From a virus, in the IMG/VR virus record IMGVR_UViG_3300042269_000088: DNA of 39,729 nt; one strand, 5' to 3'. Shown here piece by piece: positions 4,629-21,792 of the stretch. Below the pieces are notes generated by a model that was not told the origin of the DNA, did not search any database, and saw only the letters and a program-made list of their open reading frames with translations. Both the position numbers and the translations under genes were made by a program. Each line of letters opens with the position of its first letter. Position 1 is the stretch's first letter.

Positions 4629-4637
4629 ATTATACCA
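4629..4637 (-). promoter_or_regulatory. Extended -10 promoter-like element (TGGTATAAT) overlapping the terL stop codon
   Basis: Reverse complement tttgtggtataattg. Confidence 0.35.
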
Positions 4638-5886
4638 CAAATCCAATATTGATGTCCATGACTGGTTTTCGTATGGGCATCTCATATGCTATCGGGTAGG
4701 TGCTGGCATCATTCTGGTGATCGTTGCCGCTTGACTTATCAGGTTCGCCGTTCGTGTCGTATGTTTGCTGCTCAAAACAGGCAGCTACGTCTGGGCACCT
4801 TTCGTCATTGACAAACAATCTGCCATTTTCAAATGCGGCATTCGTGGAGGATATCCTATCTTTTACCGGAGGGTTCTGCGGTTTAAACCGGCACTCAAAA
4901 CCGAATTCCTGCCGCAAAATTGCGATGTCGGACTCTGCAGCCCCACCCATACGGGTTCTGTTTTTGCCGGAACTGTCTGGGTACACAATTATTTTGCTGC
5001 TCGGATATCTGTCCTTCAATACCTGAGCCACTGCGGGAGTATTATAACCATCTTTAATTTGATCCACCGCATGAAATGCTTTGTCACGCATAACATAAAC
5101 AGTTGCAGCCATTTTGTCGATGTTAAAGTCCATGCCAACGAAGATTGGCTCACCGAACTTCACCACTTCCTTGCTCCTGTGTTTTGCGCGGTCATAACTG
5201 CGGTACACGGTCCCAGAAGTCAGGTTCACAAACTGACCTTCTAAGTAAGCACTTATTAACTGTTGAGGGTACGTCTCGATTAAAGATGGTATGTAATCAG
5301 GCGGCAAAAATTCCTCGTTTTCGTAGGTACTTGCCTGTACCATTGAATAACTGGAGGTCGGGTCTTTCGCAAACTGATGATACACAAATTTGAAACCCTC
5401 TGGTGTTGTTGTGACACCAATGGAGTTTTCAACACCAGGAATCACCAAACGCATTCGAGCAATGATTTTGTTCCAAGCATCTTGCGCCTTTTGACGCTTC
5501 AGCACATCTATTTCATCAACAAGTGCTCTGCTGATTTTGAAACCCACTATAGATGCGGGGTTGTCCATTGAGCGGCATATGACGGTGCCATAATAAACAT
5601 TACCGCGATAAATACCAACCTCCTTGTCGCCAGATTTAATCACGGTCCGGAAGCCCATCATTTCCGCAGCTTCACTGAAGGTTGGATAGAAAATGTCGCG
5701 TATGGCCGGGTATGTTGGTCCGAAATATCCCTGCACCGTTCCTGGATGCTTACAGCAGAATATCAATAGGTCCAGACACCCAATAAAGGTTTTCCCGGAC
5801 CCGAAACCACCAACATACGCTCGGTATTTGGTGTTGAGTCCGCTAAGGAATACACTCTGTGGGTTACTTAACCTCAGGTCGGCCAT
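4630..5886 (-). CDS. terL: Terminase large subunit
   Basis: Walker A VGGFGSGKTF. 418 aa. Overlaps the terS 3' end. Upstream of the portal. Confidence 0.85.
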   Translation of the reverse strand: MADLRLSNPQSVFLSGLNTKYRAYVGGFGSGKTFIGCLDLLIFCCKHPGTVQGYFGPTYPAIRDIFYPTFSEAAEMMGFRTVIKSGDKEVGIYRGNVYYGTVICRSMDNPASIVGFKISRALVDEIDVLKRQKAQDAWNKIIARMRLVIPGVENSIGVTTTPEGFKFVYHQFAKDPTSSYSMVQASTYENEEFLPPDYIPSLIETYPQQLISAYLEGQFVNLTSGTVYRSYDRAKHRSKEVVKFGEPIFVGMDFNIDKMAATVYVMRDKAFHAVDQIKDGYNTPAVAQVLKDRYPSSKIIVYPDSSGKNRTRMGGAAESDIAILRQEFGFECRFKPQNPPVKDRISSTNAAFENGRLFVNDERCPDVAACFEQQTYDTNGEPDKSSGNDHQNDASTYPIAYEMPIRKPVMDINIGFVV

Positions 5887-7753: not shown

Positions 7754-8302
7754 TTACATTTTAACACGAGGTACTAAGTTGTACCATTCCTTGTGATAAT
7801 AAATTCCACCTTGATCCGAGTAGTACCAAATGGCATCCTCGTGACCTTTGATAAACTGACCAGGCCCGAATCTACCAGCTTTCGTTGGCCATTCTTTGAG
7901 TTCATCCCTAAGAAAGGAAAGGATTTTGTCGTTAGGAATCACTAACCAGGATCTTAACAAAATAGGATCTATTGATTTCCCCTGAACAAACAGAGGGTTG
8001 TCTATTGTGTTAGTGTCAAAGTGGTCTTTTGATCTAACTAACCAGGTTTTATCATCATCACCAACCAAGACATAACACGGTATCCCAGCATCTTCCTTTT
8101 GTTTTGCCCATCTACGCTGATTTGGCCTCCAGTCCTTCAAGTCAGAACCAAACTTTAATTCGATAAAACCAATATTCCCCAGCACATACATAACATCCGG
8201 GAAACCCACCTCCGATGTTTTCAGTTCAATTCGGTGGTGTTGGGCATCGGTCTTATCCAGCGCCCTTTTCAGCCTATGCCAAATACGCTGTTCCGGTTTC
8301 AC
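7754..8302 (-). CDS. VRR-NUC-like (PD-(D/E)xK) nuclease with C-terminal extension
   Basis: GFPDV...GFIELK motif. GTG start overlaps the upstream stop (GTGA) with GGAGGAG SD. Confidence 0.55.
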   Translation of the reverse strand: MKPEQRIWHRLKRALDKTDAQHHRIELKTSEVGFPDVMYVLGNIGFIELKFGSDLKDWRPNQRRWAKQKEDAGIPCYVLVGDDDKTWLVRSKDHFDTNTIDNPLFVQGKSIDPILLRSWLVIPNDKILSFLRDELKEWPTKAGRFGPGQFIKGHEDAIWYYSDQGGIYYHKEWYNLVPRVKM

Positions 8303-9084
8303 AACTGCTCCTCCTTGGCTCGCTGGCGGAGTTGGTTGGCCGCAGCATGTAATCGCTCGCGCTCTTGATGTAGCATCCATTCGCAATGATGCAGATCAGG
8401 ATCGATTGGGTTTGGTCCACCCGCATCAATGTGCGGTGCCTCTGTAGCTAAGAATCGCTCAATCACTTCGGCATCGTGGGCAGCCATATGCCGTATCAGG
8501 TCGTGGTGATTATCGCGGTACGGTTTCAGTGCCGCGACCTCCACTGCCAGTTGATCGCGCTCTTGCTTCATCTCTCCCCAGTTGGCACAAGCCGTCTTTG
8601 CTGCTTTCCGCTCGCGCTCCAGTTCCTCGTGTAGCCTGTTTGCCAAATACCACGGCGTCCAGTAACCGTCTTTGTGCGGTACCGAACGTGGCCTGTGCGA
8701 GCCGTTTTCGCGCAGGATGTAGCGAGGCAGCTCTTTCGGCCAGTCTTCTCCTGGAAGCGGTGGAATTTCGGGTTTCAGGCCGCGCAGATTAGTGACTTCA
8801 ATCTGTAAGTGTGTTAGCTCGCGTTGCAACCGCTCCACCTCGGCTTGTAGCTGCTCGATTTGAATTTTCTTCTCAATGAGCAGGTTCATGCGCGTGAAGT
8901 CGGCTTGCTTATCACCTTCCCGCAACCGCTCCACCTCGTCACATAGCGCCGTGATCGTTTTCATCTGCACCGCAGGCCAGCCGTCAGGCTGATGGTCTTC
9001 AGCCATCACGCGGCACGTCGCGATTACGTGATCCATCTCGTCATCCGTCATGTCCGTCATGTCCGTCATTTCATCTTTTTTCAT
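8299..9084 (-). CDS. Hypothetical coiled-coil protein (261 aa)
   Basis: Long ORF with GGAAGGA SD. N-terminus MTDMTDMTD is encoded by a 9-bp tandem repeat. Confidence 0.7.
   Translation of the reverse strand: MKKDEMTDMTDMTDDEMDHVIATCRVMAEDHQPDGWPAVQMKTITALCDEVERLREGDKQADFTRMNLLIEKKIQIEQLQAEVERLQRELTHLQIEVTNLRGLKPEIPPLPGEDWPKELPRYILRENGSHRPRSVPHKDGYWTPWYLANRLHEELERERKAAKTACANWGEMKQERDQLAVEVAALKPYRDNHHDLIRHMAAHDAEVIERFLATEAPHIDAGGPNPIDPDLHHCEWMLHQERERLHAAANQLRQRAKEEQL
9045..9069. repeat. 9-bp tandem repeat (ccgtcatgt x 2.8) encoding MTDMTDMTD
   Basis: Read directly from the sequence. Confidence 0.85.
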
Positions 9085-9133
9085 GGTCTCTAATCCTTCC
9101 TATTTCGCACCCTAAGCGCGTTTTAGTCTAACC

Positions 9134-9376
9134 CTAGCAAACACACCTGTTAGCCTCAAACGCCTTAATAACCGCCTCTGTGACAGCTTCAGAGTACAAC
9201 TCCTCCTCCGGTATGCCGTCCACAGGGGCAACGGTGTATTCGATCTCGGTAAAGCCGTAGAAGTTGATGTCGCTGGCCCAGCTTGTCGGATCTGGATCCT
9301 GGTGAACGTAGTGTGTAACCGTCACTGTTATGGGCACTTCGTGTTGCGGGTGTTGGATGGTGAGAGTGTGGTTCAT
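9134..9376 (-). CDS. Hypothetical protein (80 aa)
   Basis: ATGA overlap with the upstream gene. Confidence 0.6.
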   Translation of the reverse strand: MNHTLTIQHPQHEVPITVTVTHYVHQDPDPTSWASDINFYGFTEIEYTVAPVDGIPEEELYSEAVTEAVIKAFEANRCVC

Positions 9377-9561
9377 CGTCCCGCCTCCAGTTTGTCCCGC
9401 AACTCAACCAGCAGCCTGACCGCATAATCAATATCCAGCCCGAGCTGTTTCGGGTCTGGCTGATCACCACCGCCGTGACGCCGCCAGTAGTTAGCCGACT
9501 TGAGCCGTGCAACGACATCATCCAGCTCGTTGCGGTTGTTCAATTCGTCTGACAAGTTCAT
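9373..9561 (-). CDS. Hypothetical protein (62 aa)
   Basis: ATG at 9561 overlaps the stop of the upstream gene (ATGA). Confidence 0.55.
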   Translation of the reverse strand: MNLSDELNNRNELDDVVARLKSANYWRRHGGGDQPDPKQLGLDIDYAVRLLVELRDKLEAGR

Positions 9562-9779
9562 TGTTCGCACTCCCGTTCGGCTAGCATGGCGTCGGCCATT
9601 GAGTATGACCACTTAGCCATATCACAGAACGCCATATCAACCTGAGAATCAGATACTAATCCCTGCATAGCCTTAGCCGCAAAATAATCCCGCAGAGTCA
9701 TGCCGCCATCAGTGATAGACACATTGCCCGCCGTTTTGGTTTTTGGAAATGCACTCGGGTTTCTTGGTTTGCTGTTCAT
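9558..9779 (-). CDS. Hypothetical protein (73 aa; GMTLRDYFAAKAMQG motif)
   Basis: GGAG SD 10 nt after the datZ stop. Confidence 0.6.
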   Translation of the reverse strand: MNSKPRNPSAFPKTKTAGNVSITDGGMTLRDYFAAKAMQGLVSDSQVDMAFCDMAKWSYSMADAMLAERECEQ

Positions 9780-9789
9780 CTCAATTCTC

Positions 9790-10302
9790 CTATTTCAGCA
9801 CTTTATCCAATGTAGTCGGGTCATCAGACAAGAGACTGTCTAAAAGAGCCAGGGCATCTTCGTCTTTTATCTTCACTGCTATACTGGCCATCACTTGCTC
9901 TGCATGAATACCGATACCGTATTTCTTCAGGAAGTACACAGCATCAACCAAATCAGCCAACTTGATTACTTCCTTATATTCTGGGTTGCTTTCCTTTATC
10001 GGTGCACCAAGATACTTCATCCGATGTTCTACGGGGTCACTGTAATTGATAGCCTCTTTGAGGACTGTAGGCATATCTCCCGTGAGTGCTTCCCCAAGAT
10101 CATGGTATAGTGCCGATATCATTACTTCCTGCCAAGGAAGACCCTTTTTCTGCGCCAGAAACCCCGCCAGAAGGGCCACGTTAAAGGAATGTTCAGCTAC
10201 GGATTGGTTCTTAACGAAATCTACGATATGCCACCGGGTGACATGGGTGTTACGCAGCACATCCTGCGGTGTCAGGTTTATTGGGAGGTGTAAGTAAGCC
10301 AT
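9790..10302 (-). CDS. datZ: HD-domain phosphohydrolase, DatZ-like (predicted dATP triphosphohydrolase)
   Basis: AEHS...YHDLGEALTGDMP (H..HD..E..TGD, YfbR-like). 170 aa. TAATG coupling to mazZ. Confidence 0.7.
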   Translation of the reverse strand: MAYLHLPINLTPQDVLRNTHVTRWHIVDFVKNQSVAEHSFNVALLAGFLAQKKGLPWQEVMISALYHDLGEALTGDMPTVLKEAINYSDPVEHRMKYLGAPIKESNPEYKEVIKLADLVDAVYFLKKYGIGIHAEQVMASIAVKIKDEDALALLDSLLSDDPTTLDKVLK

Positions 10303-11003
10303 TATTTATGCCTCATGATGCCAGTCTGTGGGTCAACAGCCCATGTCCGGTTTTCATTGATTTCCATTTTGTCGTGCACGGCTTGGAGTGCATCAATGCC
10401 GCGCATTTGGGCAATATCAAACAACAATATCAAGGTGTCGGCGTATTCGCCGGGGTCATCCAAGCCACCATTCAGGAGTTCTGGAATTTCCTCCAGCATC
10501 AATTTTGCTAGTGCCCCGTGGGGTGTTCTGCCGGGGTACACTCGGTCTGCCCATGACTTGATTCTTTCTTGCGCCGCCGCAATTGGGTCCGAACCACATT
10601 TGCGCATTTCTTGCAGATCCAGTATCTCTTCTTCACCCGACTCGGTGAAAATGCTTCCAATTCCTTTTCTTCCTTGCACTTCAAGCAAGTCTTTTTTATA
10701 ACGTCGGTCATCAAAACCCCCAAAATTATTGTGTGTGTAGTGATGAAGAAACATCATACAGCAGGTGGCATGTGCCAGGTGGCTGCGATTAGTCTCGGCA
10801 TCGATCTCTTCACCACATTCAAAAGCCGAGATGTGTCGCTTGGCAGCGTCGATTACGCGTGAATATTCAATACCATTCATCCAGTTGGGACCGCCGTATT
10901 TATCTTCACCGTACCCCAGCACATGCGCCACGTCCTCTAGGAAGGAAGGGTCAATAAGACCCAACCTCGGTTTCCCAGAGTCAAATTTGACTCCCTTGCT
11001 CAT
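10302..11003 (-). CDS. mazZ: Two-domain (d)NTP pyrophosphohydrolase, MazZ / DUF550-like
   Basis: N-terminal FDSGKPRL...DKYGGPNW domain plus a C-terminal MazG-like EEIPELL...EYADTLILLFDIA...NENRTW. ATGA coupling to purZ. Confidence 0.65.
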   Translation of the reverse strand: MSKGVKFDSGKPRLGLIDPSFLEDVAHVLGYGEDKYGGPNWMNGIEYSRVIDAAKRHISAFECGEEIDAETNRSHLAHATCCMMFLHHYTHNNFGGFDDRRYKKDLLEVQGRKGIGSIFTESGEEEILDLQEMRKCGSDPIAAAQERIKSWADRVYPGRTPHGALAKLMLEEIPELLNGGLDDPGEYADTLILLFDIAQMRGIDALQAVHDKMEINENRTWAVDPQTGIMRHK

Positions 11004-12058
11004 AGTTCCCTCACGTTATCAGAGGTGGGGCCAAAACCTAAGTATTTAACACCACCACAGCCCACATTGTTTGCCACATTGTTGATCACGGAAACGATAA
11101 AAGCCGAATGTTGCTCATCACGGCAGTAATTTACGAAGTTCAGGAATACCTCGTCTGGCTGCACGGCACGTAGGGCATCCTCGGTCTGTTTCCGTGAGAA
11201 TGTGAAAATGCGTCGCGGCAATTGCGTCACTGTGGTCAATTCCACCGGCTGGCCCAAGTCGTTGAAGGTGATTTCCTTCTGGTCACTGTAGCACGGCCCC
11301 GACCAGCCGATCATCTCACCATCTTTATTGAACCGGTTTGCAACACGAATTGGGTAGGTACGCATTGTGCCAACGATCTTAGTTAGCCAGCGCATCGGAA
11401 CGCCCGCATCCACCATTATTTGTGCCGGTGTGCACTCACGCGACGTGGTATACGGGTAGAAACCAGAATTTATGCCGAGAGAATAGCCTTGTGCTCCCTC
11501 GACCAAAACGTTCTCTGACCGGTCCAGCGCCTTGTTGTAATTCTCGGATGTGGCCGTGCTGATATCAATATTCAGACGGTCGGAAAATGCCAACACTTCG
11601 TTGGTGAAGTCACGGGCCGTAATCACAGACTCCGGGTTTCGACGGATTTTCTCGATCATAGCGGCACCACAGCCTTTTTTGGTGGAACCGATGGCCGTCA
11701 TCGAGCCTCCTTCCTCCAGAATGTGGCGCTCCTGAATCACACACGCATTTTCATGGATGATGATCTGAACACCCTGCAGCAGGTCTTGGCATTCCTCAAT
11801 TTCAGCAAAAAGGCGATCAAGACCGATCTGTGAGCCAGGGCCAATCAACACCTGCCGAAGATTTGGTGACACAATGCCATTGGCCAACATACAGTGAACG
11901 AATTTGCGGCCATCGCGGTTAATGTAGGTGTGTCCGGCATTCATACTCCAAGCCGTAACCACCGTGTCCGGCTTGTCACGCTCTGCCAGATACCCCGCAA
12001 TCAAACCCTTGCCGGTTGATCCAAACTGGAGATCACAAACAACCGTTACCTGTCTCAT
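11000..12058 (-). CDS. purZ: PurZ-like N6-succino-2-amino-2'-deoxyadenylate synthase (truncated PurA homologue)
   Basis: 352 aa. P-loop FGSTGKGL (PurA has GDEGKGK). IGSTKKGCGAA, VEGAQGYSL..YPYTTS, MRTYPIRV and TTVTQLPRR align with PurA landmarks. Confidence 0.85.
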   Translation of the reverse strand: MRQVTVVCDLQFGSTGKGLIAGYLAERDKPDTVVTAWSMNAGHTYINRDGRKFVHCMLANGIVSPNLRQVLIGPGSQIGLDRLFAEIEECQDLLQGVQIIIHENACVIQERHILEEGGSMTAIGSTKKGCGAAMIEKIRRNPESVITARDFTNEVLAFSDRLNIDISTATSENYNKALDRSENVLVEGAQGYSLGINSGFYPYTTSRECTPAQIMVDAGVPMRWLTKIVGTMRTYPIRVANRFNKDGEMIGWSGPCYSDQKEITFNDLGQPVELTTVTQLPRRIFTFSRKQTEDALRAVQPDEVFLNFVNYCRDEQHSAFIVSVINNVANNVGCGGVKYLGFGPTSDNVREL

Positions 12059-12288
12059 ACGTAATCCACTCCATCATCAGCATCTTGCTGCAGTTGCTCA
12101 ATAAGGTGTTGCATCTCAGAAATTTGATCCTCAAGGTGTACCACATGTTCCTTAAGTGACTCAATTTCGGATTCGCGCTCTTCGATAGCGGTGTCAATTT
12201 CCGATACCGCCTTATCAATGAATTTTTGTACCACACCCCCGATTGAGGATGGGTCGTCAACATCAATATAGAAAACTTCAGTCGCCAT
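12055..12288 (-). CDS. Hypothetical acidic coiled-coil protein (77 aa)
   Basis: ATG at 12288 with GAGGA SD. Stop overlaps the purZ start (ATGA). Confidence 0.6.
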   Translation of the reverse strand: MATEVFYIDVDDPSSIGGVVQKFIDKAVSEIDTAIEERESEIESLKEHVVHLEDQISEMQHLIEQLQQDADDGVDYV

Positions 12289-12299
12289 GTCTGGTGTCC

Positions 12300-12539
12300 T
12301 CAAAAAGGAATATCATCATCAAAATCAACATCTGATGCGCCGGATTCCACCTGTTCCTCAACGGGGGTCAAAGCCAGGGACATGAAATTTGCACCATTGC
12401 GGGATTTTTTCACCCAAGCGGAAACCCAAAACTCAACACCATTGGCATTGATGCGGCCACGGTACTGCGGCTGGCGGTCGTTGGTGCGCTTGTCGTTCTT
12501 GAACAGGGCACCGGAATTTGTGTTATCAAAGTCTGACAT
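12300..12539 (-). CDS. Small single-stranded-DNA-binding protein with bacterial SSB-type acidic tip
   Basis: Ends in DVDFDDDIPF (E. coli SSB ends in DFDDDIPF). ATG at 12539 with the conserved TAATAGAGGATAAGACA leader. Confidence 0.6.
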   Translation of the reverse strand: MSDFDNTNSGALFKNDKRTNDRQPQYRGRINANGVEFWVSAWVKKSRNGANFMSLALTPVEEQVESGASDVDFDDDIPF

Positions 12540-12553
12540 TGTCTTATCCTCTA

Positions 12554-12847
12554 TTAGATTTGGAGCAGGTATGGTGCATTCAGGTCGGCCCAAATGCAGA
12601 ATTCGTCGGAAATAATGTGCTTGTCATCCTCATTGAGGACCACAATACCCTTGGCCATCAAACCAACCATAAAATCGTGGTCATCCGGGTCGAGTGGGTC
12701 CAAGGCATCAATAACGGAATCCGCCGTCAGGATGTACTCGGGGTCCAACTCTTCAACGTGATCAGCACCGGAAAGGCGCAAATGTTCACGGATGACAAAC
12801 CCCACAAATTCGGATTCTTCAACGGAGATATCATTAAAATGTGCCAT
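12554..12847 (-). CDS. Hypothetical acidic protein (97 aa)
   Basis: First gene after the consensus promoter 12878..12906. GAGGA SD. Confidence 0.65.
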   Translation of the reverse strand: MAHFNDISVEESEFVGFVIREHLRLSGADHVEELDPEYILTADSVIDALDPLDPDDHDFMVGLMAKGIVVLNEDDKHIISDEFCIWADLNAPYLLQI

Positions 12848-12877
12848 TAGTCTATCCTCTATCAGTTTTGAAATTTA

Positions 12878-12906
12878 ATTATACCATGGGAACGAACCCA
12901 TGTCAA
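12878..12906 (-). promoter_or_regulatory. Sigma70 consensus promoter P5 (TTGACA-17-TATAAT)
   Basis: Reverse complement: ttgacatgggttcgttcccatggtataat. Confidence 0.8.
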
Positions 12907-12910
12907 TACC

Positions 12911-14749
12911 TCATGTGATTGTCGGTGCCAAGGTTGCATCCCACCAGTTGGACGAAGGTTCTGAAAAATCTATCCGCAGTGGCACCCTGATTTCGGGTCT
13001 GTTCTGAACCAAAGCCTTAATTTCCTTCATGTGCTTTTCAGCACCACCAAATGGTATGGAAATCGAATACTCGTCATGAATATTCAACAACAACTTGGCG
13101 TCTGGACATTCGGACGCCAAATACTTTGATATGCGAATAATATTGCTTTTGTTCAAATCCCCCGCAGTACCCTGATATACCAGCCCAGACGCTTTGTGCG
13201 TGAATTGTCCACCCGGAAACCGTATGTGCCTGCCCATCAGGGTTTTAACATAACCCCTGGACTTGGCGATTGCCCTTGCCTTTTGTGCAATCTCCTTAAC
13301 ACCCGGAACCATAGAGTAATACTGGTCGATGATAGCTTGGGCTTCCTTCCCGGCTTTTTTGATTTCCCTAAGCTCACCACCAAGCTCAACCTCTTCGACG
13401 GTATATGGCAACCCCATCTGCGCTGCCAGTTCACCGCCGCCCATATTAAACACCATGCCCAAGTTCATCTGTTTTGCATTAGCGCCTCCCGATTGGGGTG
13501 CGTTTCGCGGCAGTCCTGTAAGCTCGGCAATAGCTGCATGTCCATCAAGGTCGGGGTTTTTTGCATAGGCCGACACAATGTTGCCGTTGTTCACATAATG
13601 ATGGAAAATCCTCAACTCGTGCTGATCCAAGTCGCCGTATGTCCAACCCATGTCCTCGTCGGGGAGAAATATCGGGCGAACCACAGACGCCACATCTTTG
13701 TCCCGAGACGGTATTTGCTGCAATGCCGGTCTGGTATAGGACAATCGACCAGTGCCTGTTCCTCCCATCCCATCACTTTTGGTCTGGTTGATGTTCGGGT
13801 GCACCCTCCCGTTTTTCTCGTGCCCCAAGATGTGCCCGCCGATGAATGTGTCGCGGGTCTTCATCATTTTCCTTACTTTTAGGATTAGTGCAGCTGCGGG
13901 GTGCTTCATTGAGCGCAGAACATCCGCACCAATGGATGGTTTACCGGCAGGTGTGGTCGGCAAAATGGTCCCATCACATGCTACCCACACACCGGACTTG
14001 TTCTGCTTCGGTTCGAACAACTTCATAATCGAACCGGACGGATTGGGGTTGACCTCAAACCCCGCCACCTCATTTAGCCGTTTTTGATTCAAGTCGATGG
14101 TGGAAGTTAGTGAAGACATCTGGATTTCTGCCTTGTCATGGTCTATCCGGATACCATGCCGTTCCATTCGGAATACATGTGGGAACAGTTCCCTTTCCAA
14201 ATTCCACACGTCGTGCAACTGCTGGCGCTCAATCTCTTTTTCCTGCCACAAATACAATTCCAGGGCTATTTCGGCATCGACCTTGGCATAAGGTTCCACC
14301 AGTGATGGCGGTGCCCTGTGCAGATTTGGCATTTGTGCGTTTCGTGTTACCCTTCCACCAAACAATGCCGCCAACTTCTCGTAAATGTCATCAACTTTGT
14401 TTTTGCCAAGGTATTTCTTAGCCAGGGAATCCAAGCTGTAACTGTGGAGGTGTTCATTTATCAAAGCCGCCCTGATCATGGTATCTTCACACTGTTCAGG
14501 TTCCAATAGCACACCATCGTTCTTCAACATGTGAAGATCAAACTTCATGTTGTGATTCACAACCTTCTTGAACTCGGTGCTCAGAAGCTTTTTGTATTTT
14601 CCGGGTTCCCTGCGGATATCAAAATATTCAGACTTGATTTGACCATTTTCTACCCATGCTATGGCCACACCGAAAATTTTGTCCTCTAACCAGTTAACGC
14701 CTGTGGTTTCAACGTCAATGCACACCAAGTCAGAAAGTTCCCAACTCAT
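12911..14749 (-). CDS. dpoZ: Family-A DNA polymerase with 3'-5' exonuclease, DpoZ-like
   Basis: Exo I CIDVETTG. Pol motif A DLDQHELRI. Motif B NAKQMNLGMVFNMG. Motif C NIHDEY. 612 aa. Same strand as purZ and 850 bp away from it. Confidence 0.8.
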   Translation of the reverse strand: MSWELSDLVCIDVETTGVNWLEDKIFGVAIAWVENGQIKSEYFDIRREPGKYKKLLSTEFKKVVNHNMKFDLHMLKNDGVLLEPEQCEDTMIRAALINEHLHSYSLDSLAKKYLGKNKVDDIYEKLAALFGGRVTRNAQMPNLHRAPPSLVEPYAKVDAEIALELYLWQEKEIERQQLHDVWNLERELFPHVFRMERHGIRIDHDKAEIQMSSLTSTIDLNQKRLNEVAGFEVNPNPSGSIMKLFEPKQNKSGVWVACDGTILPTTPAGKPSIGADVLRSMKHPAAALILKVRKMMKTRDTFIGGHILGHEKNGRVHPNINQTKSDGMGGTGTGRLSYTRPALQQIPSRDKDVASVVRPIFLPDEDMGWTYGDLDQHELRIFHHYVNNGNIVSAYAKNPDLDGHAAIAELTGLPRNAPQSGGANAKQMNLGMVFNMGGGELAAQMGLPYTVEEVELGGELREIKKAGKEAQAIIDQYYSMVPGVKEIAQKARAIAKSRGYVKTLMGRHIRFPGGQFTHKASGLVYQGTAGDLNKSNIIRISKYLASECPDAKLLLNIHDEYSISIPFGGAEKHMKEIKALVQNRPEIRVPLRIDFSEPSSNWWDATLAPTIT

Positions 14750-16164
14750 ATCAGTTCCCTCAAAGGATTTGACCCCATAACAATGTCCAAACGCTCCTTG
14801 GCCCTGGTTACGGCAACGTAAAATGTGCGGATCTCGGAATCGCGTTCTTTCGATTCATATGTTCTTTGTCCCATACCATTAACCAAGATAATTCTGTTTG
14901 CCTCTTTACCCTTGGATGCATGGATGGTACATATTCTAACATCTGTAGATTTCGGTAGGCAACCGTGGGATTCAAAAATCCTCTTCAGGTATGAAATGAG
15001 GTCGGGCTTGAGGTCCAGTACCTGTTCCCAACTCTTCTTGATTTCCACCCTTCTTTTTACCTTGTCCCTATAAACCGGTTTCACAGCCCGTTCCAGGGCA
15101 TTCCACTCCTTGTCGCTGAGCATATCCAGCCCGGTATTGGCCATATTCTGCTGGTATTTACACCAAACGCGAACGGCATTGGCTTGCCTAGATGACAAAG
15201 GTGCTGGCTTTCCGCCGTCAGCCGTATATGCTACACCCCGCGACACCAACCATTCTTCTATGTCCTCCCTTATAGAGTGATTACGCACCAATATCATAGT
15301 TTCACCAGTTGGGGTGTCAACCATCCTGATGTCCCCATATCTGTTAATTACACCCTTGTCAGCTTTCGGGCGGTACTCTTTTTCCACTCGGTCTGACACA
15401 TTTGATATAAGGTCGGTAGCGAGGTCGTGGACCGAGGATGGTATGCGGAAGGACTGGTCGAGGACGACCCTTTTGGCACCATGTCTGATCTCGAAATCGG
15501 GCATACCCGACGGGTCTGCACCATTCCACTTGTATATGGACTGGTCATCATCACCGGCAATAATTATTTCCTTCAGGAATGGAATCCACGATTCCACCAG
15601 ACGCCACTGCTGTGGCGTGAGATCTTGGGCCTCATCTACCACCAAAATGTCTACTTCTGGGTCTTCACCAACGGCCAGATCCAACATGTCCGAGAAGTCC
15701 ACAACGCCATAAGCTTTCTTGAATGACTCATACGACTCAACAAAATAAATGAATTCGTGCAGTGCACCAACCTCTGGACACTCCATGAAAACACCTTTAT
15801 AATTCGTTGTCAGCTTGGCCCTGGCCAATGAATATAATGACATATATGCCTGTCCCTTGGTCATTTCCGTAATTTCATAGGAATTTACAGAACTGAACTG
15901 TATGCCAATAACCTTGGTCAACTCCCGGAGCCATGAATCGTTTATCACCCGCTCCTTCGACAGTCCTGCCAGTCTATAACCATATGAGTGCAGTGTGGAA
16001 ATTTCTCTTCCAGCCGGTATACCACACCGATCAGCAATCTCTTTTGCCGCCGCTTTTGTAAATGACACTACACCGACTCTTTCCTGTTGATAGGACTTGA
16101 CCCTATTAACCAAATAGGTAGTTTTGCCCGTACCCGGAGGACCGTAAATAACTTCTGCTTTCAT
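14746..16164 (-). CDS. SF1 (UvrD/RecD/Dda-like) DNA helicase
   Basis: Walker A GPPGTGKTT, Walker B VVDEAQD, C-terminal TIHASKGKEA. ATGA overlap with dpoZ. Confidence 0.8.
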   Translation of the reverse strand: MKAEVIYGPPGTGKTTYLVNRVKSYQQERVGVVSFTKAAAKEIADRCGIPAGREISTLHSYGYRLAGLSKERVINDSWLRELTKVIGIQFSSVNSYEITEMTKGQAYMSLYSLARAKLTTNYKGVFMECPEVGALHEFIYFVESYESFKKAYGVVDFSDMLDLAVGEDPEVDILVVDEAQDLTPQQWRLVESWIPFLKEIIIAGDDDQSIYKWNGADPSGMPDFEIRHGAKRVVLDQSFRIPSSVHDLATDLISNVSDRVEKEYRPKADKGVINRYGDIRMVDTPTGETMILVRNHSIREDIEEWLVSRGVAYTADGGKPAPLSSRQANAVRVWCKYQQNMANTGLDMLSDKEWNALERAVKPVYRDKVKRRVEIKKSWEQVLDLKPDLISYLKRIFESHGCLPKSTDVRICTIHASKGKEANRIILVNGMGQRTYESKERDSEIRTFYVAVTRAKERLDIVMGSNPLRELI

Positions 16165-16175
16165 TCTATCACCTA

Positions 16176-16199
16176 TAAAAAAGGCGGGTTTCCCCGCCT
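16176..16199 (-). terminator. Rho-independent terminator
   Basis: Reverse complement: AGGCGGG-gaaa-CCCGCCT-tttttt. Confidence 0.8.
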
Positions 16200-16204
16200 C
16201 AATT

Positions 16205-16930
16205 TTACATCTCGCTGTCGTCTTCCGTAACTTCAGTACTGCGGTCCACTGCAGCTCCTCCGGATTTCACCATGTCGTAAATTTGCTCGGCATGCTTGAA
16301 CACCTGCTCTGTTACAAAGCCGACATTCTTCACGGACAGATTGTAGAAATCCTGGCCAGCCTTGTTCTGGTCGGCAACACCAGAAATCTTGTACACACGT
16401 GAGAATCGCGGCCCACCATTGATTCGAACCAGGCTATTCCAGTTACGGCTCACACGGGACTTGGTTTTTGCCATGGATATGACGGCTTCTTCAACAGAAC
16501 CATCCTCCTTCAGTACCAGCACGAAATGCTGATTGGTGTCCACAACTTCCCACTCATGTGGCACTTCTTGTGTCTGTCGGGCCTCTTCAGCACTAGCACC
16601 ATCTGGGAACGCACCACCGAAACCACCTCCGAGCTTGGTGTCACGCCACAGAAGGTATTCCTTGCGGAAGAACACCGGAACCACATTAATTAACTCGCCG
16701 TACAGCTCACGGGTGACATTATTGTACAGCATGCCCTCTTGAGCACCATCAATGTATGCGGGGTCTGTCTTCTTCCGGCATGCGGACAGGGACTGAACCA
16801 ATTCAATTCGAGGAATCACCAAATCATCAGAACCGACCTCTTCAGATCCACGATTATCCTGCATCTTTTCCTGTAGGAATGCTGGCATTGTTTCATTCAT
16901 ATTCACATTTGACACTTCATTCTTAGCCAT
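16205..16930 (-). CDS. Hypothetical replication/recombination-module protein (241 aa, acidic C-terminus)
   Basis: ATG at 16930 with AAGGTGG SD. Followed by a strong terminator. Function not recognised. Confidence 0.7.
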   Translation of the reverse strand: MAKNEVSNVNMNETMPAFLQEKMQDNRGSEEVGSDDLVIPRIELVQSLSACRKKTDPAYIDGAQEGMLYNNVTRELYGELINVVPVFFRKEYLLWRDTKLGGGFGGAFPDGASAEEARQTQEVPHEWEVVDTNQHFVLVLKEDGSVEEAVISMAKTKSRVSRNWNSLVRINGGPRFSRVYKISGVADQNKAGQDFYNLSVKNVGFVTEQVFKHAEQIYDMVKSGGAAVDRSTEVTEDDSEM

Positions 16931-16946
16931 CTTATCCACCTTTCTA

Positions 16947-17432
16947 CTAACGCTTGGTTATTGTTGCACGTGAAAACGGAGTTACTTGATAAACATCTTC
17001 TGGGATTTCAATGCCATCCCGGAGCATTCGACGAATTAGCGCCTTTAATGACGACGCATTTACCGTCTCGGAGATAAGATCTTCATGACCATTTTCCGCC
17101 AGCCATTCGAAGCTTGCCTCCTTGTTGTTGATCTTCAGATAAATGTCCGAAGTCAACGACACCCTGCCAACACCCTGCACAGTGATGGACTCTACACCTT
17201 CTTCGTCCATCTTCATGGGCACTGCATGAGTGCGGACGTAATCATAAACCTTACCAACGGCAGATTTATGGCTGTCCAGTTTTTCATGCAATTCCTTGAT
17301 GTCGGCCTGGAATTGTGCCAACTGCACCAAATCCAGACTATCAAAATCCAGGGATTCTGTGTTGAACCCCTCTACCGCAGAACCAAGACTTTCCTCGGCC
17401 AGGCTTATTGCCTTGACGAATGCATCTATCAT
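16947..17432 (-). CDS. Hypothetical protein (161 aa; possibly Gp157-like)
   Basis: N-terminal coiled coil. Abuts the upstream stop codon. Family call is weak. Confidence 0.6.
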   Translation of the reverse strand: MIDAFVKAISLAEESLGSAVEGFNTESLDFDSLDLVQLAQFQADIKELHEKLDSHKSAVGKVYDYVRTHAVPMKMDEEGVESITVQGVGRVSLTSDIYLKINNKEASFEWLAENGHEDLISETVNASSLKALIRRMLRDGIEIPEDVYQVTPFSRATITKR

Positions 17433-17747
17433 CTATCGGATCTCCATTTCTATGGGTCGGTACCTACCGCCAATTTTGTCCCATAGCAGGACATTAACAA
17501 CATCACATCTCTCGGCGGCTTTGTGGAACGCATACCCGATCACAGCGGGGTTTCCCGTCAGCACCAAATAATCATCCTCACCAAACTGCTCAAGCGTGGA
17601 GTCAATTCGGGTCATGATCGACTCATTAATCAATGAACCCCGAATCGGCTTAATCTCATCGCGAGTAATGAAATTCACCTCACCAAACCGCTCAGCATCG
17701 GAATAATCAATGTAATTATTCTCCTGAACCACCCAAACTTTGTTCAT
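17433..17747 (-). CDS. Hypothetical protein (104 aa)
   Basis: First gene after promoter 17772..17800. AGGAGAATAGA leader. Confidence 0.65.
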   Translation of the reverse strand: MNKVWVVQENNYIDYSDAERFGEVNFITRDEIKPIRGSLINESIMTRIDSTLEQFGEDDYLVLTGNPAVIGYAFHKAAERCDVVNVLLWDKIGGRYRPIEMEIR

Positions 17748-17771
17748 TCTATTCTCCTATCCAATAAGGAA

Positions 17772-17800
17772 ATTGTATCACACCGTGGGGCTTCGGTCAA
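17772..17800 (-). promoter_or_regulatory. Sigma70-like promoter P6 (TTGACC-17-TACAAT)
   Basis: Reverse complement: ttgaccgaagccccacggtgtgatacaat. Confidence 0.65.
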
Positions 17801-19444
17801 CTATAATTTTGAACGGACATATTCGGCAACGTCCATCTTGCTCCTGAGAATATTCATGATGTGTGCATCCTTTGACCCCTCCGCCACTATGTCCACGTAT
17901 AACACATTTTTATCCTGACCAATACGGTGGCACCGGTCCTCGGATTGCATTCTGTCGGACAACTTAAGTGAGTTGCTGTAGTAAATAACCAGGTTAGCGT
18001 TATTTAAAGTAAGACCAGTGCCGCCGGTCTGCTGGTTGGCAACGAATACCTTGGCGGGTCCAGACGTGAATCTTTTCAAACTTTCCTCCCGTTCATCCGA
18101 AGACAAACCACCGTGGTACTCCACACACTCGATGCCCGAAGACTTCAGCGCCTCCACGATATCTGCGATTTCCCGCCTGAATTTTGCCCACACTATGACA
18201 TCACCACCCACATTCTGCCTCACCAATTCCAGCAGTTCCATAATCTTGGGGTTTTTGTCCGGTTGGACTATCACGGAAGTTTTGCGGCCATCATCGGTGT
18301 CATGGTTGATAAAACCTCCGGATATCTGTTGCAGCATCGTATATTTGGCCAGCACCTGATCCACAAACACCTTGACACTCTCAGTGCCATTGTGGATCAT
18401 GGACTCCATTTCCTTATCTATTTCCTTATAAAACTTCTTTTGTTCCTTTGTCATTGAAACTGTTCGGACGCTATAGGTCTTCTCCGGTAGGTCCAAAACG
18501 TCTTCCTTCTTACATTGGAAGGTGAACGGCTTGATGGTATCCATCAACTCATCCTGGTTCTGATACCCAATTACTTCCCTGTTCTCATAGCCGCCCATAA
18601 TTGCGTATCTGGATTTGAACGCGAAATAACTACCAAACCCCAGGATGTTCGGGTCCAATATGTCAAAGGGCATGTACAAATCCAAAAGTCCCTGAGTTAC
18701 GGGGGAGCCGGTCATGATATTCGCAACCACAGCGCATGATGCGATGTGCTTGATATTCCTGGCCCTGTTTGCATCTGGGTTTTTACACAGGTGCGATTCA
18801 TCCAAGGTAACGGCATATCTCTCCCCGCCTATGATATCAAGCATGGCATCATAGGCACTGCCGCCTTTATACTTTGATGACATGCTTTCTATGCCGACAA
18901 TGACAACCTTCAACTTTTTGTCTGGGGCTTTCACTTTCCTGCCGGATTGAATGACAACCACACCAACATCTAGTGGGCAGTGGATTTCTATTTCGCGCAT
19001 CCAGTTAAAACGTATTGAATTCGGGCAGAACACCACCCAAGTATCAAATCTACCCGCCAAAATATGTGCGGACATCAGATCTATGGCAGTTTTGGTCTTG
19101 CCAGTGCCCATCTCCATGAAGAATGCGTGCCGGTCTAAACCATAAGCGTAATTGAGTGCCTGCATCTGATGCAAAAATGGTTTAGTCTTAAACTTGTAAT
19201 CCTTCGGGAACGGTATGTATTGCACCTGCTTTAATTGGACAACCTGTTCCGCCACTACAAGAGCTTTTTCGTCCATGTATCTGCGGAGATGTTCCAGCAT
19301 GAACTCACATGCTTTCCTGACCTTCGGAACCGCCCACTTCCTAGACCTTGAATTAAACCGCTTCATTGGCAGTGCCGCAATCAACTGGTTCTCTTCAAAG
19401 CCGCATTCTATCACGAATTTGTTGCGCTCTAATGTGATTTTCAT
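17801..19444 (-). CDS. SNF2-family (SF2) helicase / translocase
   Basis: MEMGTGKT (motif I), LDESH (motif II), TGGTGLTL and QSEDRCHRIGQ (motifs V/VI). Confidence 0.85.
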   Translation of the reverse strand: MKITLERNKFVIECGFEENQLIAALPMKRFNSRSRKWAVPKVRKACEFMLEHLRRYMDEKALVVAEQVVQLKQVQYIPFPKDYKFKTKPFLHQMQALNYAYGLDRHAFFMEMGTGKTKTAIDLMSAHILAGRFDTWVVFCPNSIRFNWMREIEIHCPLDVGVVVIQSGRKVKAPDKKLKVVIVGIESMSSKYKGGSAYDAMLDIIGGERYAVTLDESHLCKNPDANRARNIKHIASCAVVANIMTGSPVTQGLLDLYMPFDILDPNILGFGSYFAFKSRYAIMGGYENREVIGYQNQDELMDTIKPFTFQCKKEDVLDLPEKTYSVRTVSMTKEQKKFYKEIDKEMESMIHNGTESVKVFVDQVLAKYTMLQQISGGFINHDTDDGRKTSVIVQPDKNPKIMELLELVRQNVGGDVIVWAKFRREIADIVEALKSSGIECVEYHGGLSSDEREESLKRFTSGPAKVFVANQQTGGTGLTLNNANLVIYYSNSLKLSDRMQSEDRCHRIGQDKNVLYVDIVAEGSKDAHIMNILRSKMDVAEYVRSKL

Positions 19445-20979
19445 AACTCAGGCTCCACACGTACCGGCTCCAGGTCAATCACATCCCCGTCATTTAGGGG
19501 TGCGAACCACACTGATATTACCGATGACTCAACCCTCAGCTTGGCATGCTCAACGCCAACCTTCCTAAGTGCCATCCACAAGTTAGAACCTTTCAACTCC
19601 TCCGACCTGTTCTTCTTGAGGAAGTCAATGAAATCGGAACCCCTGAAGTATACTACGCGCTTTCCATCCACCTTTTGCACGACTGGTGATCCGAGCAACA
19701 ATGCTCTGCGCTCTGTTATGTCTTCACCACCGGATGACAAATCAGCCCGCCCGAAGAATTCAAACAGTCGCTCGCGAATAAAGCCGTATGCGGACGCCTC
19801 CTCCGGTGCCTCCAAAATGATTGCCTTCTCCATCAGGCTACACAATGTGGCTTCCCATTTGTCGTTTTTCATTGGGGCGATGATTTTTGTCAGATTGTCA
19901 GCAACAGCACGACGAACAGCTTTATAATCCATCAATTCATGTGTGGCCAGGGTGACGGGTGTATCATCTACATATAAAACCCACCTGACGGGTTCGGTAG
20001 TGTACTTTTCAAGCTTCCCGAATTCTGGCGGTTTACCAAGCTCTAGTTCACCCTTCTCTTCCGGTGTAATCCCAAATTTGCGCTTAACACACAAAGAACT
20101 GTTACATAAAGACCTGCACGGTTCTTCCTTGCATTTGTACCGGTACTCCCGGCGGCTGGCACTGGTGATGGTTCGTTTCGCCTCACTGTGGACCAGCGGT
20201 TTTTCAAAAATTCTGGCATTTGCATCGAATGCCCTATCCTTCCATGTTTCTGGGAATGCCTTTTTGAAATATATCACCAGGTTATATAGGGCTTCATTCC
20301 TGTGGCCCCTACCAACACCATCAACCAACATCCTCTGGATACACGGTGGTGCTTCTCCGTGCTCCCCGTCGGTCTTTTCTATTAGAATAGCTGGTTTTAC
20401 CCTTCTGGATTCAGCAAGGCTAAGGAAATAGGCAAAGGGGACCTTCTGGCCACCCTCGAAGCAATACCTGAGTTCATTTGGGCTGTCAGCATCAAAACAG
20501 CACAGGTTGAGCCAATTTCCGAGCTGCCTCTCACCACCAGACTCCGGCAGGTTATCCTGCTTGGGGAAAATTTCGACCCCAGGATATCCAACAAGACCCG
20601 CCCACTTTGCCAGTGCTTGTCTTACCACCTTGGCCGGTGTGGGATCTGTCATGAACAGATAAAGATGTGCGCCGCCCGACTTAGATCTGCATATTGTTAG
20701 CGGTAGATCATTCTGCTTAACGGCCTTTTCAAGCTCCAACAAATCAATATCGGGACTGTCACCATGTGCATCAATATCAATGGCACCAAACCAGCAATTT
20801 CCATCATCCAATACGGGAACCACTCCCACACCTTCCTCCCCGGAAAGGTGTTTCTCGTATTGCTCGAACCCGATGGCACTCCTTTCAGTGTGCATCTTGC
20901 CAGTTTTCGGATTAAAGACACCATAAGACCTGGGGTTCCCGACAAACAAGCCGGAAAACCGCTCTATTTTCTCTTTCAT
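19441..20979 (-). CDS. Archaeo-eukaryotic-type primase (prim-pol fold) with C-terminal extension
   Basis: GAIDIDAH (DxD) and SKSGGAHLYLF (sGGxH) motifs. 512 aa. No P-loop seen. Confidence 0.65.
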   Translation of the reverse strand: MKEKIERFSGLFVGNPRSYGVFNPKTGKMHTERSAIGFEQYEKHLSGEEGVGVVPVLDDGNCWFGAIDIDAHGDSPDIDLLELEKAVKQNDLPLTICRSKSGGAHLYLFMTDPTPAKVVRQALAKWAGLVGYPGVEIFPKQDNLPESGGERQLGNWLNLCCFDADSPNELRYCFEGGQKVPFAYFLSLAESRRVKPAILIEKTDGEHGEAPPCIQRMLVDGVGRGHRNEALYNLVIYFKKAFPETWKDRAFDANARIFEKPLVHSEAKRTITSASRREYRYKCKEEPCRSLCNSSLCVKRKFGITPEEKGELELGKPPEFGKLEKYTTEPVRWVLYVDDTPVTLATHELMDYKAVRRAVADNLTKIIAPMKNDKWEATLCSLMEKAIILEAPEEASAYGFIRERLFEFFGRADLSSGGEDITERRALLLGSPVVQKVDGKRVVYFRGSDFIDFLKKNRSEELKGSNLWMALRKVGVEHAKLRVESSVISVWFAPLNDGDVIDLEPVRVEPEL

Positions 20980-21073
20980 CTATTCTCTCCATTATAAGAA
21001 CCCAGAGATTTTCATTTAAAGACAACCTCTAGGGGGCAACACCATCTTATCATGTTACCGTAGTCTCTTACAA

Positions 21074-21153
21074 GTTCTACAGCTTATTCTACACCTAACC
21101 TCCCGTCCTACGGTGTTTCTGATAGTGTTGTAGAATTGTAGTAGGTGTAGAAT
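21074..21153. repeat. Iteron array: 4 copies of (A/G)TTCTACA / TGTAGAAT
   Basis: Copies at 21074 and 21086 (forward), and at 21129 and 21146 (reverse). Confidence 0.8.
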
Positions 21154-21164
21154 GAACTCCGAAT

Positions 21165-21200
21165 ATTGTCTGTCGTTGACAATTTTTTCCGGTTTATAAA
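21165..21200 (+). promoter_or_regulatory. Operator/promoter-like module, copy 2 (ATTGTC-N7-GACAAT palindrome over TTGACA, then TATAAAAAAG)
   Basis: attgtctgtcgttgacaattttttccggtttataaa. The -35 to TATAAA spacer is only 13 nt. Confidence 0.5.
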
Positions 21201-21221
21201 AAAGTAACGCTACACGGGGGA

Positions 21222-21250
21222 TTGACAGAGAAAACCATGGGTGTTATAAT
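21222..21250 (+). promoter_or_regulatory. Sigma70 consensus promoter P1 (TTGACA-17-TATAAT)
   Basis: attgacagagaaaaccatgggtgttataat. TGn extended -10 present. Confidence 0.8.
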
Positions 21251-21284
21251 AAAGGTACGAAATAGATTGATAGAGGATAAAACA

Positions 21285-21422
21285 ATGTTTAATGCCACTA
21301 TTACCTACAAAAGTGGAAAGGTAGAAGAAGCCCAGATTAAAATTGCGGAATATGCCGAAGTGCTGGCCCAGCTGGTTGAAGAGGGTGGGTTGGTTTCTGT
21401 GAAGATCAATTCGGTGGTGTGA
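21285..21422 (+). CDS. Hypothetical early protein (45 aa)
   Basis: Start must lie downstream of promoter 21222..21250. GAGGA SD at 21273. Confidence 0.55.
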   Translation: MFNATITYKSGKVEEAQIKIAEYAEVLAQLVEEGGLVSVKINSVV

Positions 21423-21539
21423 ATGCCAAGAGAAGCAACGAGAAGGTACTTTCCTTAAACGTAAAACACACAGTCCCCACTGACATAGATATTCAAGTGA
21501 AAGCCCAAGGAAGGGCAAGGGAAAAAGAAGGAAAGGGGA

Positions 21540-21569
21540 TTGACAGGACAACACCATGGGTGTTATAAT
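21540..21569 (+). promoter_or_regulatory. Sigma70 consensus promoter P2 (TTGACA-18-TATAAT)
   Basis: ttgacaggacaacaccatgggtgttataat. Spacer end is identical to P1. Confidence 0.8.
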
Positions 21570-21789: not shown

Positions 21790-21792
21790 GCA

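Follow-up and report, generated by a model that had tools for sequence, protein, structure and literature searches.

A probable phiVC8/SH-Ab 15497-type 2-aminoadenine module in the complete genome of an uncultivated siphophage

The phage pathway that replaces adenine with 2-aminoadenine (Z) has been described previously (PMC12884076, PMC8342488, PMC8065100, PMC8599892). A Z-cluster (datZ-mazZ-purZ) has been defined by the contiguity and shared orientation of the three genes and by the position of mazZ between purZ and datZ, and this triad suffices to put Z into Escherichia coli DNA (PMC8342488). Metagenomic contigs bearing PurZ are enriched in DNA selected for dZ, the deoxynucleoside of Z (bioRxiv 10.1101/2025.10.22.683976). 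The four-gene signature PurZ, MazZ, DatZ and DpoZ is limited to phages of the phiVC8 and SH-Ab 15497 types, because cyanophage S-2L uses a PrimPol and has no DpoZ (PMC8065100). Here we describe a region carrying all four genes (positions 9790–14749) in a window of 39,729 nucleotides, the whole of IMG/VR virus record IMGVR_UViG_3300042269_000088. We consider it very probable that this region is a complete, functional Z module of the phiVC8/SH-Ab 15497 type in the complete 39.6-kb genome of an uncultivated siphophage.

The sequence was assembled from a metagenome (JGI/IMG), and sibling contigs in several samples encode the same proteins. Positions 1–127 are identical to positions 39603–39729 over exactly 127 bp, so the contig represents a circular, complete genome with 39,602 bp of unique sequence. 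Since a megablast search of positions 9000–17000 against 50,697 GenBank phages returned no match, the genome is not that of a known isolate. An initial annotation had proposed the PurZ-MazZ-DatZ-DpoZ set and ascribed it to S-2L-type phages as well; hidden Markov model (HMM) cut-offs, structure matches, active-site residues, phylogeny and synteny all place the set here, and the extension to S-2L falls. The coordinates and lengths that it gave for the four open reading frames (ORFs) are exact, with the polymerase 852 bp upstream of the PurA homologue. For all four proteins, the best match among solved structures is a Z-phage enzyme.

The four Z-pathway enzymes

The purZ gene (11000–12058, minus strand) encodes a 352-amino-acid (aa) protein that we assign as N6-succino-2-amino-2'-deoxyadenylate synthase. 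It scores 400.3 bits against the curated NCBIfam PurZ model NF038379 (cut-off 300), stays below the cut-off of every PurA equivalog (best 142.7 bits versus 368) and matches phrog_1211 at 2e-98. In the PDB search, the PurZ structures of phiVC8 and S-2L scored 310 and 256 bits, compared with 89 bits for archaeal PurA, about 68 for E. coli PurA and 61 for 7VF6, the GTP-using PurZ0 of Gordonia phage Archimedes (PMC12884076). Comparison with E. coli PurA (432 aa) confirmed the initial reading of this ORF as a short PurA homologue with an altered P-loop and retained landmarks. The P-loop reads FGSTGKGL where E. coli PurA has WGDEGKGK, and the landmarks read IGSTKKGCGAAM where E. coli PurA has IGTTGRGIGPAY, EGAQGYSLG..YPYTTSR for EGAQGTLLD..YPYVTSS, and TTVTQLPRR for TTGRRRR. 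The motifs quoted in the initial annotation stand, apart from a trivial slip that rendered the last PurA motif as TTGRKRR.

Five residues, F12, S14, T262, F295 and Y298, define the use of dGMP and ATP by PurZ (bioRxiv 10.1101/2025.10.22.683976), and the protein keeps them all. At the first three of these positions, E. coli PurA carries W, D and G. The catalytic Asp13 of PurA is replaced by Ser. F295 and Y298, the pair that stacks on the adenine of ATP, lie in the segment NFVNY, where E. coli PurA has the GTP-specificity motif TKLD; the pair is present in all PurZ proteins compared, and PurZ0 proteins have I/L and L/V instead. We constructed a neighbour-joining tree of 13 taxa (200 bootstraps, without archaeal PurA), in which the protein groups with PurZ and separately from PurZ0 and PurA (100% bootstrap support) and forms the deepest branch of the subclade of Acinetobacter phage SH-Ab 15497 and Salmonella phage PMBT28 (again 100%). 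Its identity is 42–61% to PurZ proteins, 32–33% to the PurZ0 proteins of Wayne and Goodman, and 24% to E. coli PurA. The profile search and phylogeny that the initial annotation had proposed thus both assign the ORF to PurZ and reject its nesting within bona fide PurA. The 352-aa protein is PurZ by all sequence tests, which supports a predicted activity that converts dGMP, aspartate and ATP to N6-succino-2-amino-dAMP (dSMP).

The dpoZ gene (12911–14749, minus strand) encodes a 612-aa family-A DNA polymerase with a 3'-5' exonuclease. It scores 874 bits against NF038380 (phage_DpoZ_1; cut-off 500) and fails both the Pol I equivalog (221 bits versus 720) and the Wayne-like model NF038381 (DpoZ_2; 23 bits versus 350). 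The PDB search returned phiVC8 DpoZ (7PBK) at 2e-154 and the Klenow fragment at 1e-52. In tblastn against GenBank phages, identity runs from 61% to 43% in Z-cluster phages and then falls to at most 29% in all other PolAs. The three DpoZ insertions (G349–G353; A442–P448 in helix O; P473–K491) are all of full length, and G353, A442, G446, L455, F459, P473, K490, K491 and G548 are invariant (alignment A4).

The exonuclease is intact, as initially read: motifs Exo I–III (DxE, NxxFD, YxxxD) and R161 are invariant across four DpoZ sequences. R161 and M165 sit on the extended E1/E2 exonuclease helices; M165 is kept in the window protein and in phiVC8 DpoZ and is I or A in SH-Ab 15497 and PMBT28, a variation described before (PMC8599892). 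The selectivity of DpoZ for dZTP is a preference that arises from backtracking and imposes no absolute gate (PMC8599892). Together, these features support a phiVC8-type DpoZ, for which a preference for dZTP over dATP is predicted.

The mazZ gene (10302–11003, minus strand) encodes a 233-aa protein that matches phrog_801 at 2e-50. The initial description of a two-domain pyrophosphohydrolase with a MazG/DUF550-like C-terminus is borne out by an N-terminal PF18909 (DUF5664) domain (5e-29; residues 3–99, nucleotides 10707–10997) and a C-terminal PF04447 (DUF550) domain (1e-6), the DUF550/MazZ-1 region spanning residues 141–232 (nucleotides 10308–10583). The N-terminal domain is 43–47% identical to those of SH-Ab 15497 and PMBT28, and the C-terminal domain matches the S-2L MazZ structure 7ODY at 2e-14. 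The S-2L metal ligands E35, E38, E50 and D53 correspond to E172, E175, E186 and D189, the guanine-specificity residues I56 and D60 to I192 and D196, and R83, also kept, to R219; all are invariant (alignment A3). The fused DUF5664-DUF550 enzyme of SH-Ab 15497 hydrolyses both dGTP and dATP (PMC12884076, PMC8342488), and DUF5664 alone hydrolyses dATP, dUTP and dGTP in phage Wayne (PMC12884076). By analogy with the SH-Ab 15497 enzyme, the window MazZ therefore probably removes dATP besides supplying dGMP. The dGMP-supplying role proposed initially stands but is probably incomplete for an enzyme of the fused type.

The datZ gene (9790–10302, minus strand) encodes a 170-aa HD protein that matches phrog_7076 ('dATP triphosphohydrolase') at 3e-28 and, as its best PDB match, S-2L DatZ (6ZPA) at 6e-14. 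Residues R19, W20, I22, H34, H66 and D67 of S-2L DatZ correspond to R23, W24, I26, H38, H67 and D68, and E70, D75, K81, K116 and D119 to E71, D76, K82, K114 and D117. The metal ligands (H34, H66, D67 and D119 in S-2L) and the triphosphate ligands (R19, K81 and K116) are all invariant (alignment A1). The segment R23-W24-H25-I26 corresponds to R19-W20-G21-I22 of S-2L, and thereby contains the specificity pair, of which W20 selects against a 2'-OH and I22 against a 2-amino group on the purine; this W-I pair has been found only on dZ-enriched contigs. These data uphold the initial assignment of the HD hydrolase as DatZ and support a predicted activity that converts dATP to dA and PPPi and spares dZTP. 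Among cultured phages, the protein is nearer to the Vibrio phiVC8/VP5 type (37.5–39% identity) than to the SH-Ab 15497 type (about 35%). The difference is small, and set beside the SH-Ab-like PurZ, MazZ and DpoZ it may reflect mosaicism inside the Z-cluster.

Operon structure and the proposed route to Z

The genes purZ, mazZ and datZ are contiguous and co-oriented, in the order of the Z-cluster, with overlaps of 4 nt and 1 nt. The ATGA overlap (11003–11000) that joins purZ to mazZ and the TAATG overlap (10304–10300) that joins mazZ to datZ, both noted initially, were read from the sequence. A further ATGA (12058–12055) places the stop of orf77 over the ATG of purZ. Three small minus-strand genes lie between dpoZ and purZ: orf97 (12554–12847), a gene for a 79-aa single-strand DNA-binding (SSB)-like protein (12300–12539) and orf77 (12055–12288), an acidic coiled-coil ORF of 77 aa.

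Directly after the dpoZ stop, a sigma-70 promoter (12906–12878, minus strand) matches the consensus at 12 of 12 positions (TTGACA-17-TATAAT, with an extended -10 TG). It would drive orf97-ssb-orf77-purZ-mazZ-datZ, of which orf97 is the first gene. It is one of five perfect 12/12 promoters with an extended -10 TG in the genome (the others are at 7407–7379 and 7688–7660 on the minus strand and at 21222–21250 and 21540–21569 on the plus strand), for a chance expectation roughly estimated at 0.01–0.02 per genome. All five are copies of one cassette, each with a CCATGG palindrome in the spacer that could be an operator. The leader ATAGAGGATA follows four of the five promoters, 5–6 nt ahead of an ATG; it precedes orf97, and a fifth copy of the leader stands before the SSB start. 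SH-Ab 15497, PMBT28 and Pseudomonas phage PSA28 have three to four perfect consensus promoters each, and the non-Z Oceanospirillum phage vB_OliS_GJ44 has none. Z-DNA would turn the -10 element into TZTZZT, which bears on promoter reading by host RNA polymerase in Z phages generally.

Two of the perfect promoters fall in a divergent control region of about 1 kb (20979–21997) that separates the replication operon, read leftward, from the rightward accessory operon. The GC skew flips sign there and near 27 kb, tracking the direction of transcription. Scans for RNA genes with Rfam (gathering thresholds) and for tRNAs found none.

The SSB-like protein matches phrog_7364 and phrog_18154 ('single strand DNA binding protein') at about 3e-16, and its homologues are found at the corresponding site in SH-Ab 15497, PMBT28, PSA28, Providencia phage Kokobel2, Klebsiella phage VLCpiS6a, ZP6, phiVC8 and the IMG/VR loci. 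The other two small ORFs are lineage-specific. The orf77 product has sub-threshold coiled-coil Pfam matches and one marginal PHROG match (phrog_5750, E 8e-4); none of eight Z phages and six IMG/VR lineages has it, and the sibling copy is 92% identical at the aa level. The orf97 product has no family match in Pfam or PHROG and was found only in sibling contigs. We tried both as candidates for new partners in the Z pathway and rejected them; a conserved role is unlikely because no other PurZ lineage examined has them.

A block of novel ORFs of about 1.4 kb (8299–9779, minus strand), between datZ and a conserved nuclease-like gene, likewise occurs in sibling contigs only. The lineage-specific insertions are 69–92% identical between siblings at the aa level and the Z enzymes 96–99.7%; orf261 of the novel block is 69% identical where PurZ is 99.7% identical. 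Such fast divergence of a small-ORF block is typical of host-interaction or anti-defence genes. For the Z enzymes, pN/pS against the sibling contig is 0.017 for DpoZ, 0.028 for PurZ, 0.061 for MazZ and 0.088 for DatZ, with pS up to 0.2, and these genes are therefore in use.

The sequence itself shows what the genes are, that their active sites are intact, how the operon is built and that selection is purifying; the enzymatic steps that follow, like the Z content of the virion, are inferred from orthology to characterised enzymes. Host sigma-70 RNA polymerase would transcribe orf97-ssb-orf77-purZ-mazZ-datZ from position 12906, with the last four genes translationally coupled. The DUF5664-DUF550 MazZ would convert dGTP, and probably dATP too, to monophosphates, and PurZ would combine dGMP with aspartate, using ATP, to give dSMP. 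Host PurB and host kinases, none of which is encoded in the window, would complete the synthesis of dZTP, and DatZ would destroy dATP. DpoZ would copy the genome with Z opposite T in concert with the UvrD helicase coupled to it, the SSB-like protein, the SNF2 helicase and the AEP primase, its proofreading exonuclease backtracking more readily on A:T than on Z:T. The packaged DNA would be ZTGC. A thymidylate synthase, ThyA, and a second MazG-like enzyme plausibly support the supply of dTTP, and a C5-cytosine methyltransferase (C5-MTase) and a Lar-like protein plausibly cover restriction threats that Z leaves unblocked.

Z substitution and its alternatives

Substitution of the virion DNA with Z (ZTGC) is, in our assessment, highly likely, as a strong inference and not a demonstration. 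Several observations weigh against it. The prediction comes from a metagenome contig, whose sequence carries no record of base chemistry. Palindromes containing A/T are depleted to 0.67 of expectation, like those of non-Z controls, and the genome shows no relaxed selection on A-containing restriction sites; because dZ blocks only about half of the restriction enzymes tested (PMC12944874), this argument is weak. The remaining points are minor departures in the enzymes. Motif C of DpoZ is the canonical HDE, as in SH-Ab 15497, and not the HDS of phiVC8. The base-stabilising P79 of DatZ is replaced by Val80, with the same Val in the accepted DatZ of phiVC8, at a position where the source paper allows conservative substitutions. 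W252 of PurZ is replaced by Phe, as in S-2L.

The 352-aa ORF might instead be an ordinary auxiliary metabolic gene of the PurA type that raises AMP production, with generic nucleotide housekeeping hydrolases for neighbours, and it does carry a Pfam adenylosuccinate synthetase domain (1e-33) and the JGI label adenylosuccinate synthase. We give this explanation almost no weight: the protein reaches at most 143 bits on PurA equivalogs that require at least 368, has Ser for Asp13 and NFxNY for the GTP-specifying TKLD, and, at 24% identity to E. coli PurA, lies outside PurA in the tree. It is also exceedingly improbable that the locus encodes a GTP-dependent, actinophage-like PurZ0 system in place of PurZ proper. 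PurZ0 and PurZ are homologous and both were matched in tblastn, but the protein scores 61 bits on 7VF6 against 310 and 256 on the PurZ structures, is 32–33% identical to the Wayne and Goodman PurZ0 proteins against 42–61% for PurZ, and contains F295 and Y298. Its partners are DatZ and MazZ, not DutZ and DmtZ; PHROG scans that covered about 50 of the larger ORFs, and not several of the small ones, revealed no Dut-like or NDT-like gene. The polymerase, too, fits DpoZ_1 and not the Wayne-type DpoZ_2 (23 bits versus 350).

If these genes are PurZ, MazZ, DatZ and DpoZ, they might still be a decaying relic that is out of use. We found nothing that speaks for this, and it seems next to impossible given that all catalytic residues are intact, that pN/pS is 0.017–0.088 against a sibling with pS up to 0.2, and that translational coupling links the genes downstream of a consensus promoter. 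Alternatively, active Z genes might bring about partial or conditional substitution, with a mixture of A and Z in the virion, for instance if host dATP is incompletely cleared or if DpoZ is only modestly selective. The selectivity of DpoZ is indeed only a backtracking preference (PMC8599892), and A/T-containing palindromes are still depleted. Set against this are two dATP-removing activities encoded in the window (DatZ and, probably, the DUF5664-DUF550 enzyme), the ability of PurZ to consume (d)ATP as well, and the full substitution of characterised relatives with the same gene set (PMC12884076). We therefore regard partial substitution as improbable and favour a fully Z-substituted genome.

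Mosaic setting and comparison with known Z phages

The Z genes belong to a larger conserved block. The UvrD/PcrA-type helicase gene (14746–16164, minus strand; PF00580, 1e-24) is coupled to dpoZ by an ATGA overlap (14749–14746) and holds the same position in all relatives compared; a terminator-like hairpin (16200–16181) lies ahead of the UvrD-DpoZ pair. The rest of the block (16205–20979, minus strand) encodes a Pam3_gp34-like protein, DUF7307, a Pam3_gp32-like protein, an SNF2 helicase (17801–19444) and an AEP primase (19441–20979), and is 40–62% identical at the aa level to SH-Ab 15497, PMBT28 and PSA28. In all, 11 genes from the AEP primase to DatZ (about 11 kb) are collinear with these three phages, at 34–62% aa identity. 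Six IMG/VR lineages, with PurZ proteins 53–61% identical to that of the window, keep UvrD, DpoZ, SSB, PurZ, MazZ, DatZ and the nuclease-like gene in strict order. The window lineage has, in addition, orf97 between DpoZ and SSB, orf77 between SSB and PurZ, and the 1.4-kb block after DatZ.

Outside this block, the backbone is a different one. The large terminase (4630–5886, minus strand) shares 73% identity with its counterpart in GJ44, for which neither PurZ nor DpoZ is annotated, and 61% with the terminases of E. coli Kagunavirus phages; the likeness to GJ44 points to module exchange between Z and non-Z phage backbones. Tail genes show almost no relation to anything in GenBank. The presence of tape measure, tail chaperone, major tail and tail terminator genes and the lack of a sheath gene confirm a siphovirus morphology, in line with the initial description of a 39.6-kb siphovirus-type genome. 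The terminase, the Pseudoalteromonas-like methyltransferase and a Halomonas-like tail protein give hints of an aquatic gammaproteobacterium as the host.

The accessory genes named in the initial annotation are present. The C5-MTase gene (1955–2806, minus strand; 283 aa) meets PF00145 at 2e-33 and TIGR00675 at 112 bits (cut-off 101), is closest to the methyltransferase of Pseudoalteromonas phage H40/1 (69% identity), and is inserted between portal and Mu-F-like head-morphogenesis genes that are adjacent in GJ44, SH-Ab 15497 and PMBT28. Among PDB entries, it is most similar to the catalytic domains of DNMT3 and M.HhaI. With these matches, and with the CmoX paper drawing no link to Z phages, we set aside a CmoX-type carboxymethyltransferase as an identity for this protein; PHROG and Pfam scans, which left several small ORFs unscanned, turned up no CmoA homologue. 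The rightward accessory operon (21997–25520) encodes the Lar-like protein (21997–22335, plus strand; PF14354, 9e-12), the second MazG-like nucleoside triphosphate pyrophosphatase (NTP-PPase; 23981–24454, plus strand) and ThyA (24663–25520, plus strand; NF002497, 376 bits versus a cut-off of 327). For the second MazG-like enzyme, confidence is moderate: phrog_671 (4e-14), a tblastn match to annotated phage NTP-PPases (3e-11) and an EExxE..D..D motif support the proposed identity, and Pfam and NCBIfam give no match. Homologues of the C5-MTase, Lar-like protein, ThyA and second MazG-like enzyme are absent from eight reference Z phages, as are those of the terminase and tail proteins. The genome is thus truly mosaic in that its conserved Z-replication block sits in a backbone of another kind, and the mosaic setting described in the initial annotation is supported.

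G/C-only hexamer palindromes are almost purged from the window, with 3 observed versus about 68 expected (maximum-order Markov model) and 63–105 in simulations of order 2–4; GCCGGC, GGCGCC, CGGCCG and GCGCGC do not occur at all. Non-palindromic G/C-only hexamers stand at 1.04 of expectation. The depletion is the strongest among the 12 genomes compared; three non-Z phages show 0.35–0.50 of expectation for G/C-only palindromes and S-2L shows 1.0. On these values, and on the 0.67 for A/T-containing palindromes of the window, we rejected palindrome avoidance as a proxy for Z-DNA.

dZ has no effect on CCGG cleavage, and G/C-only sites stay cleavable (PMC12944874). Because of this, we tentatively suggest, as a possibility somewhat short of even odds, that the phage layers its anti-restriction, combining Z with its own 5-methylcytosine (m5C), Lar-type anti-restriction and a purge of G/C palindromes, each layer covering sites that Z leaves unprotected. 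None of the eight cultured Z phages compared has a C5-MTase homologue, and we found no report of a doubly modified (Z and m5C) phage genome in the literature searched. A possible combination of Z with cytosine methylation is the sole biological question that this genome raises.

The pathway, its synteny, its metagenomic spread and curated annotation models for PurZ and DpoZ are already published, so that no new system is described here and the understanding of the pathway is unchanged. What the window adds is a divergent complete genome among Z-genome siphophages, with about 60% PurZ and DpoZ identity to the SH-Ab 15497 subclade, and evidence that phage backbones with no other relationship exchange the 11-kb Z-replication block as a whole. 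Its compact variants (352-aa PurZ, 233-aa MazZ, 170-aa DatZ and 612-aa DpoZ) are potentially useful for the engineering of ZTGC-DNA.

Among known systems, the PurZ0 actinophages (Arthrobacter phage Wayne; Gordonia phages Ghobes and Archimedes) likewise produce Z-DNA by way of a homologue that derives from PurA, but do so with a GTP-using PurZ0, DutZ, DmtZ, DUF5664-1 and a Wayne-type DpoZ (PMC12884076), none of which the window matches. Cyanophage S-2L has the datZ-mazZ-purZ triad contiguous, co-oriented and in the same order as the window. In its C-terminal domain, the window MazZ belongs to the S-2L MazZ-1 type; identity is 42%, and every catalytic and guanine-specificity residue is kept. The DatZ W20/I22 pair is identical. 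In contrast, S-2L has a non-selective PrimPol in place of DpoZ (PMC8065100) and a single-domain MazZ.

Vibrio phage phiVC8, a podovirus and the source of the PurZ and DpoZ crystal structures, is closer, with PurZ 48–52% and DpoZ about 45% identical to the window proteins and all DpoZ clade insertions and signature residues in common. Its DatZ is marginally the closest from a cultured relative (37.5–39%) and shares the Val at P79. However, phiVC8 has a short MazZ-2 without detectable similarity to either domain of the window MazZ, a different primase and a podovirus structural module, and its DpoZ carries an 11-residue exonuclease insertion and the HDS of motif C, both of which the window DpoZ lacks.

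The strongest likeness is to SH-Ab 15497 and its relatives PMBT28, PSA28, VLCpiS6a and Kokobel2, which share the 11-kb order of primase, SNF2, three small genes, UvrD, DpoZ, SSB, PurZ, MazZ and DatZ, with PurZ 58–61% and DpoZ 59–61% identical but no similarity at the nucleotide level. The genomes of this group are larger (43–48 kb versus 39.6 kb), their MazZ proteins (290–385 aa) bear a long C-terminal extension absent from the 233-aa protein of the window, and their terminase, tail and lysis genes are unrelated to those of the window. For its part, the window has two extra small ORFs in the operon, the 1.4-kb novel block after DatZ, and the C5-MTase, Lar, ThyA and second MazG-like genes that the SH-Ab 15497 group does not carry.

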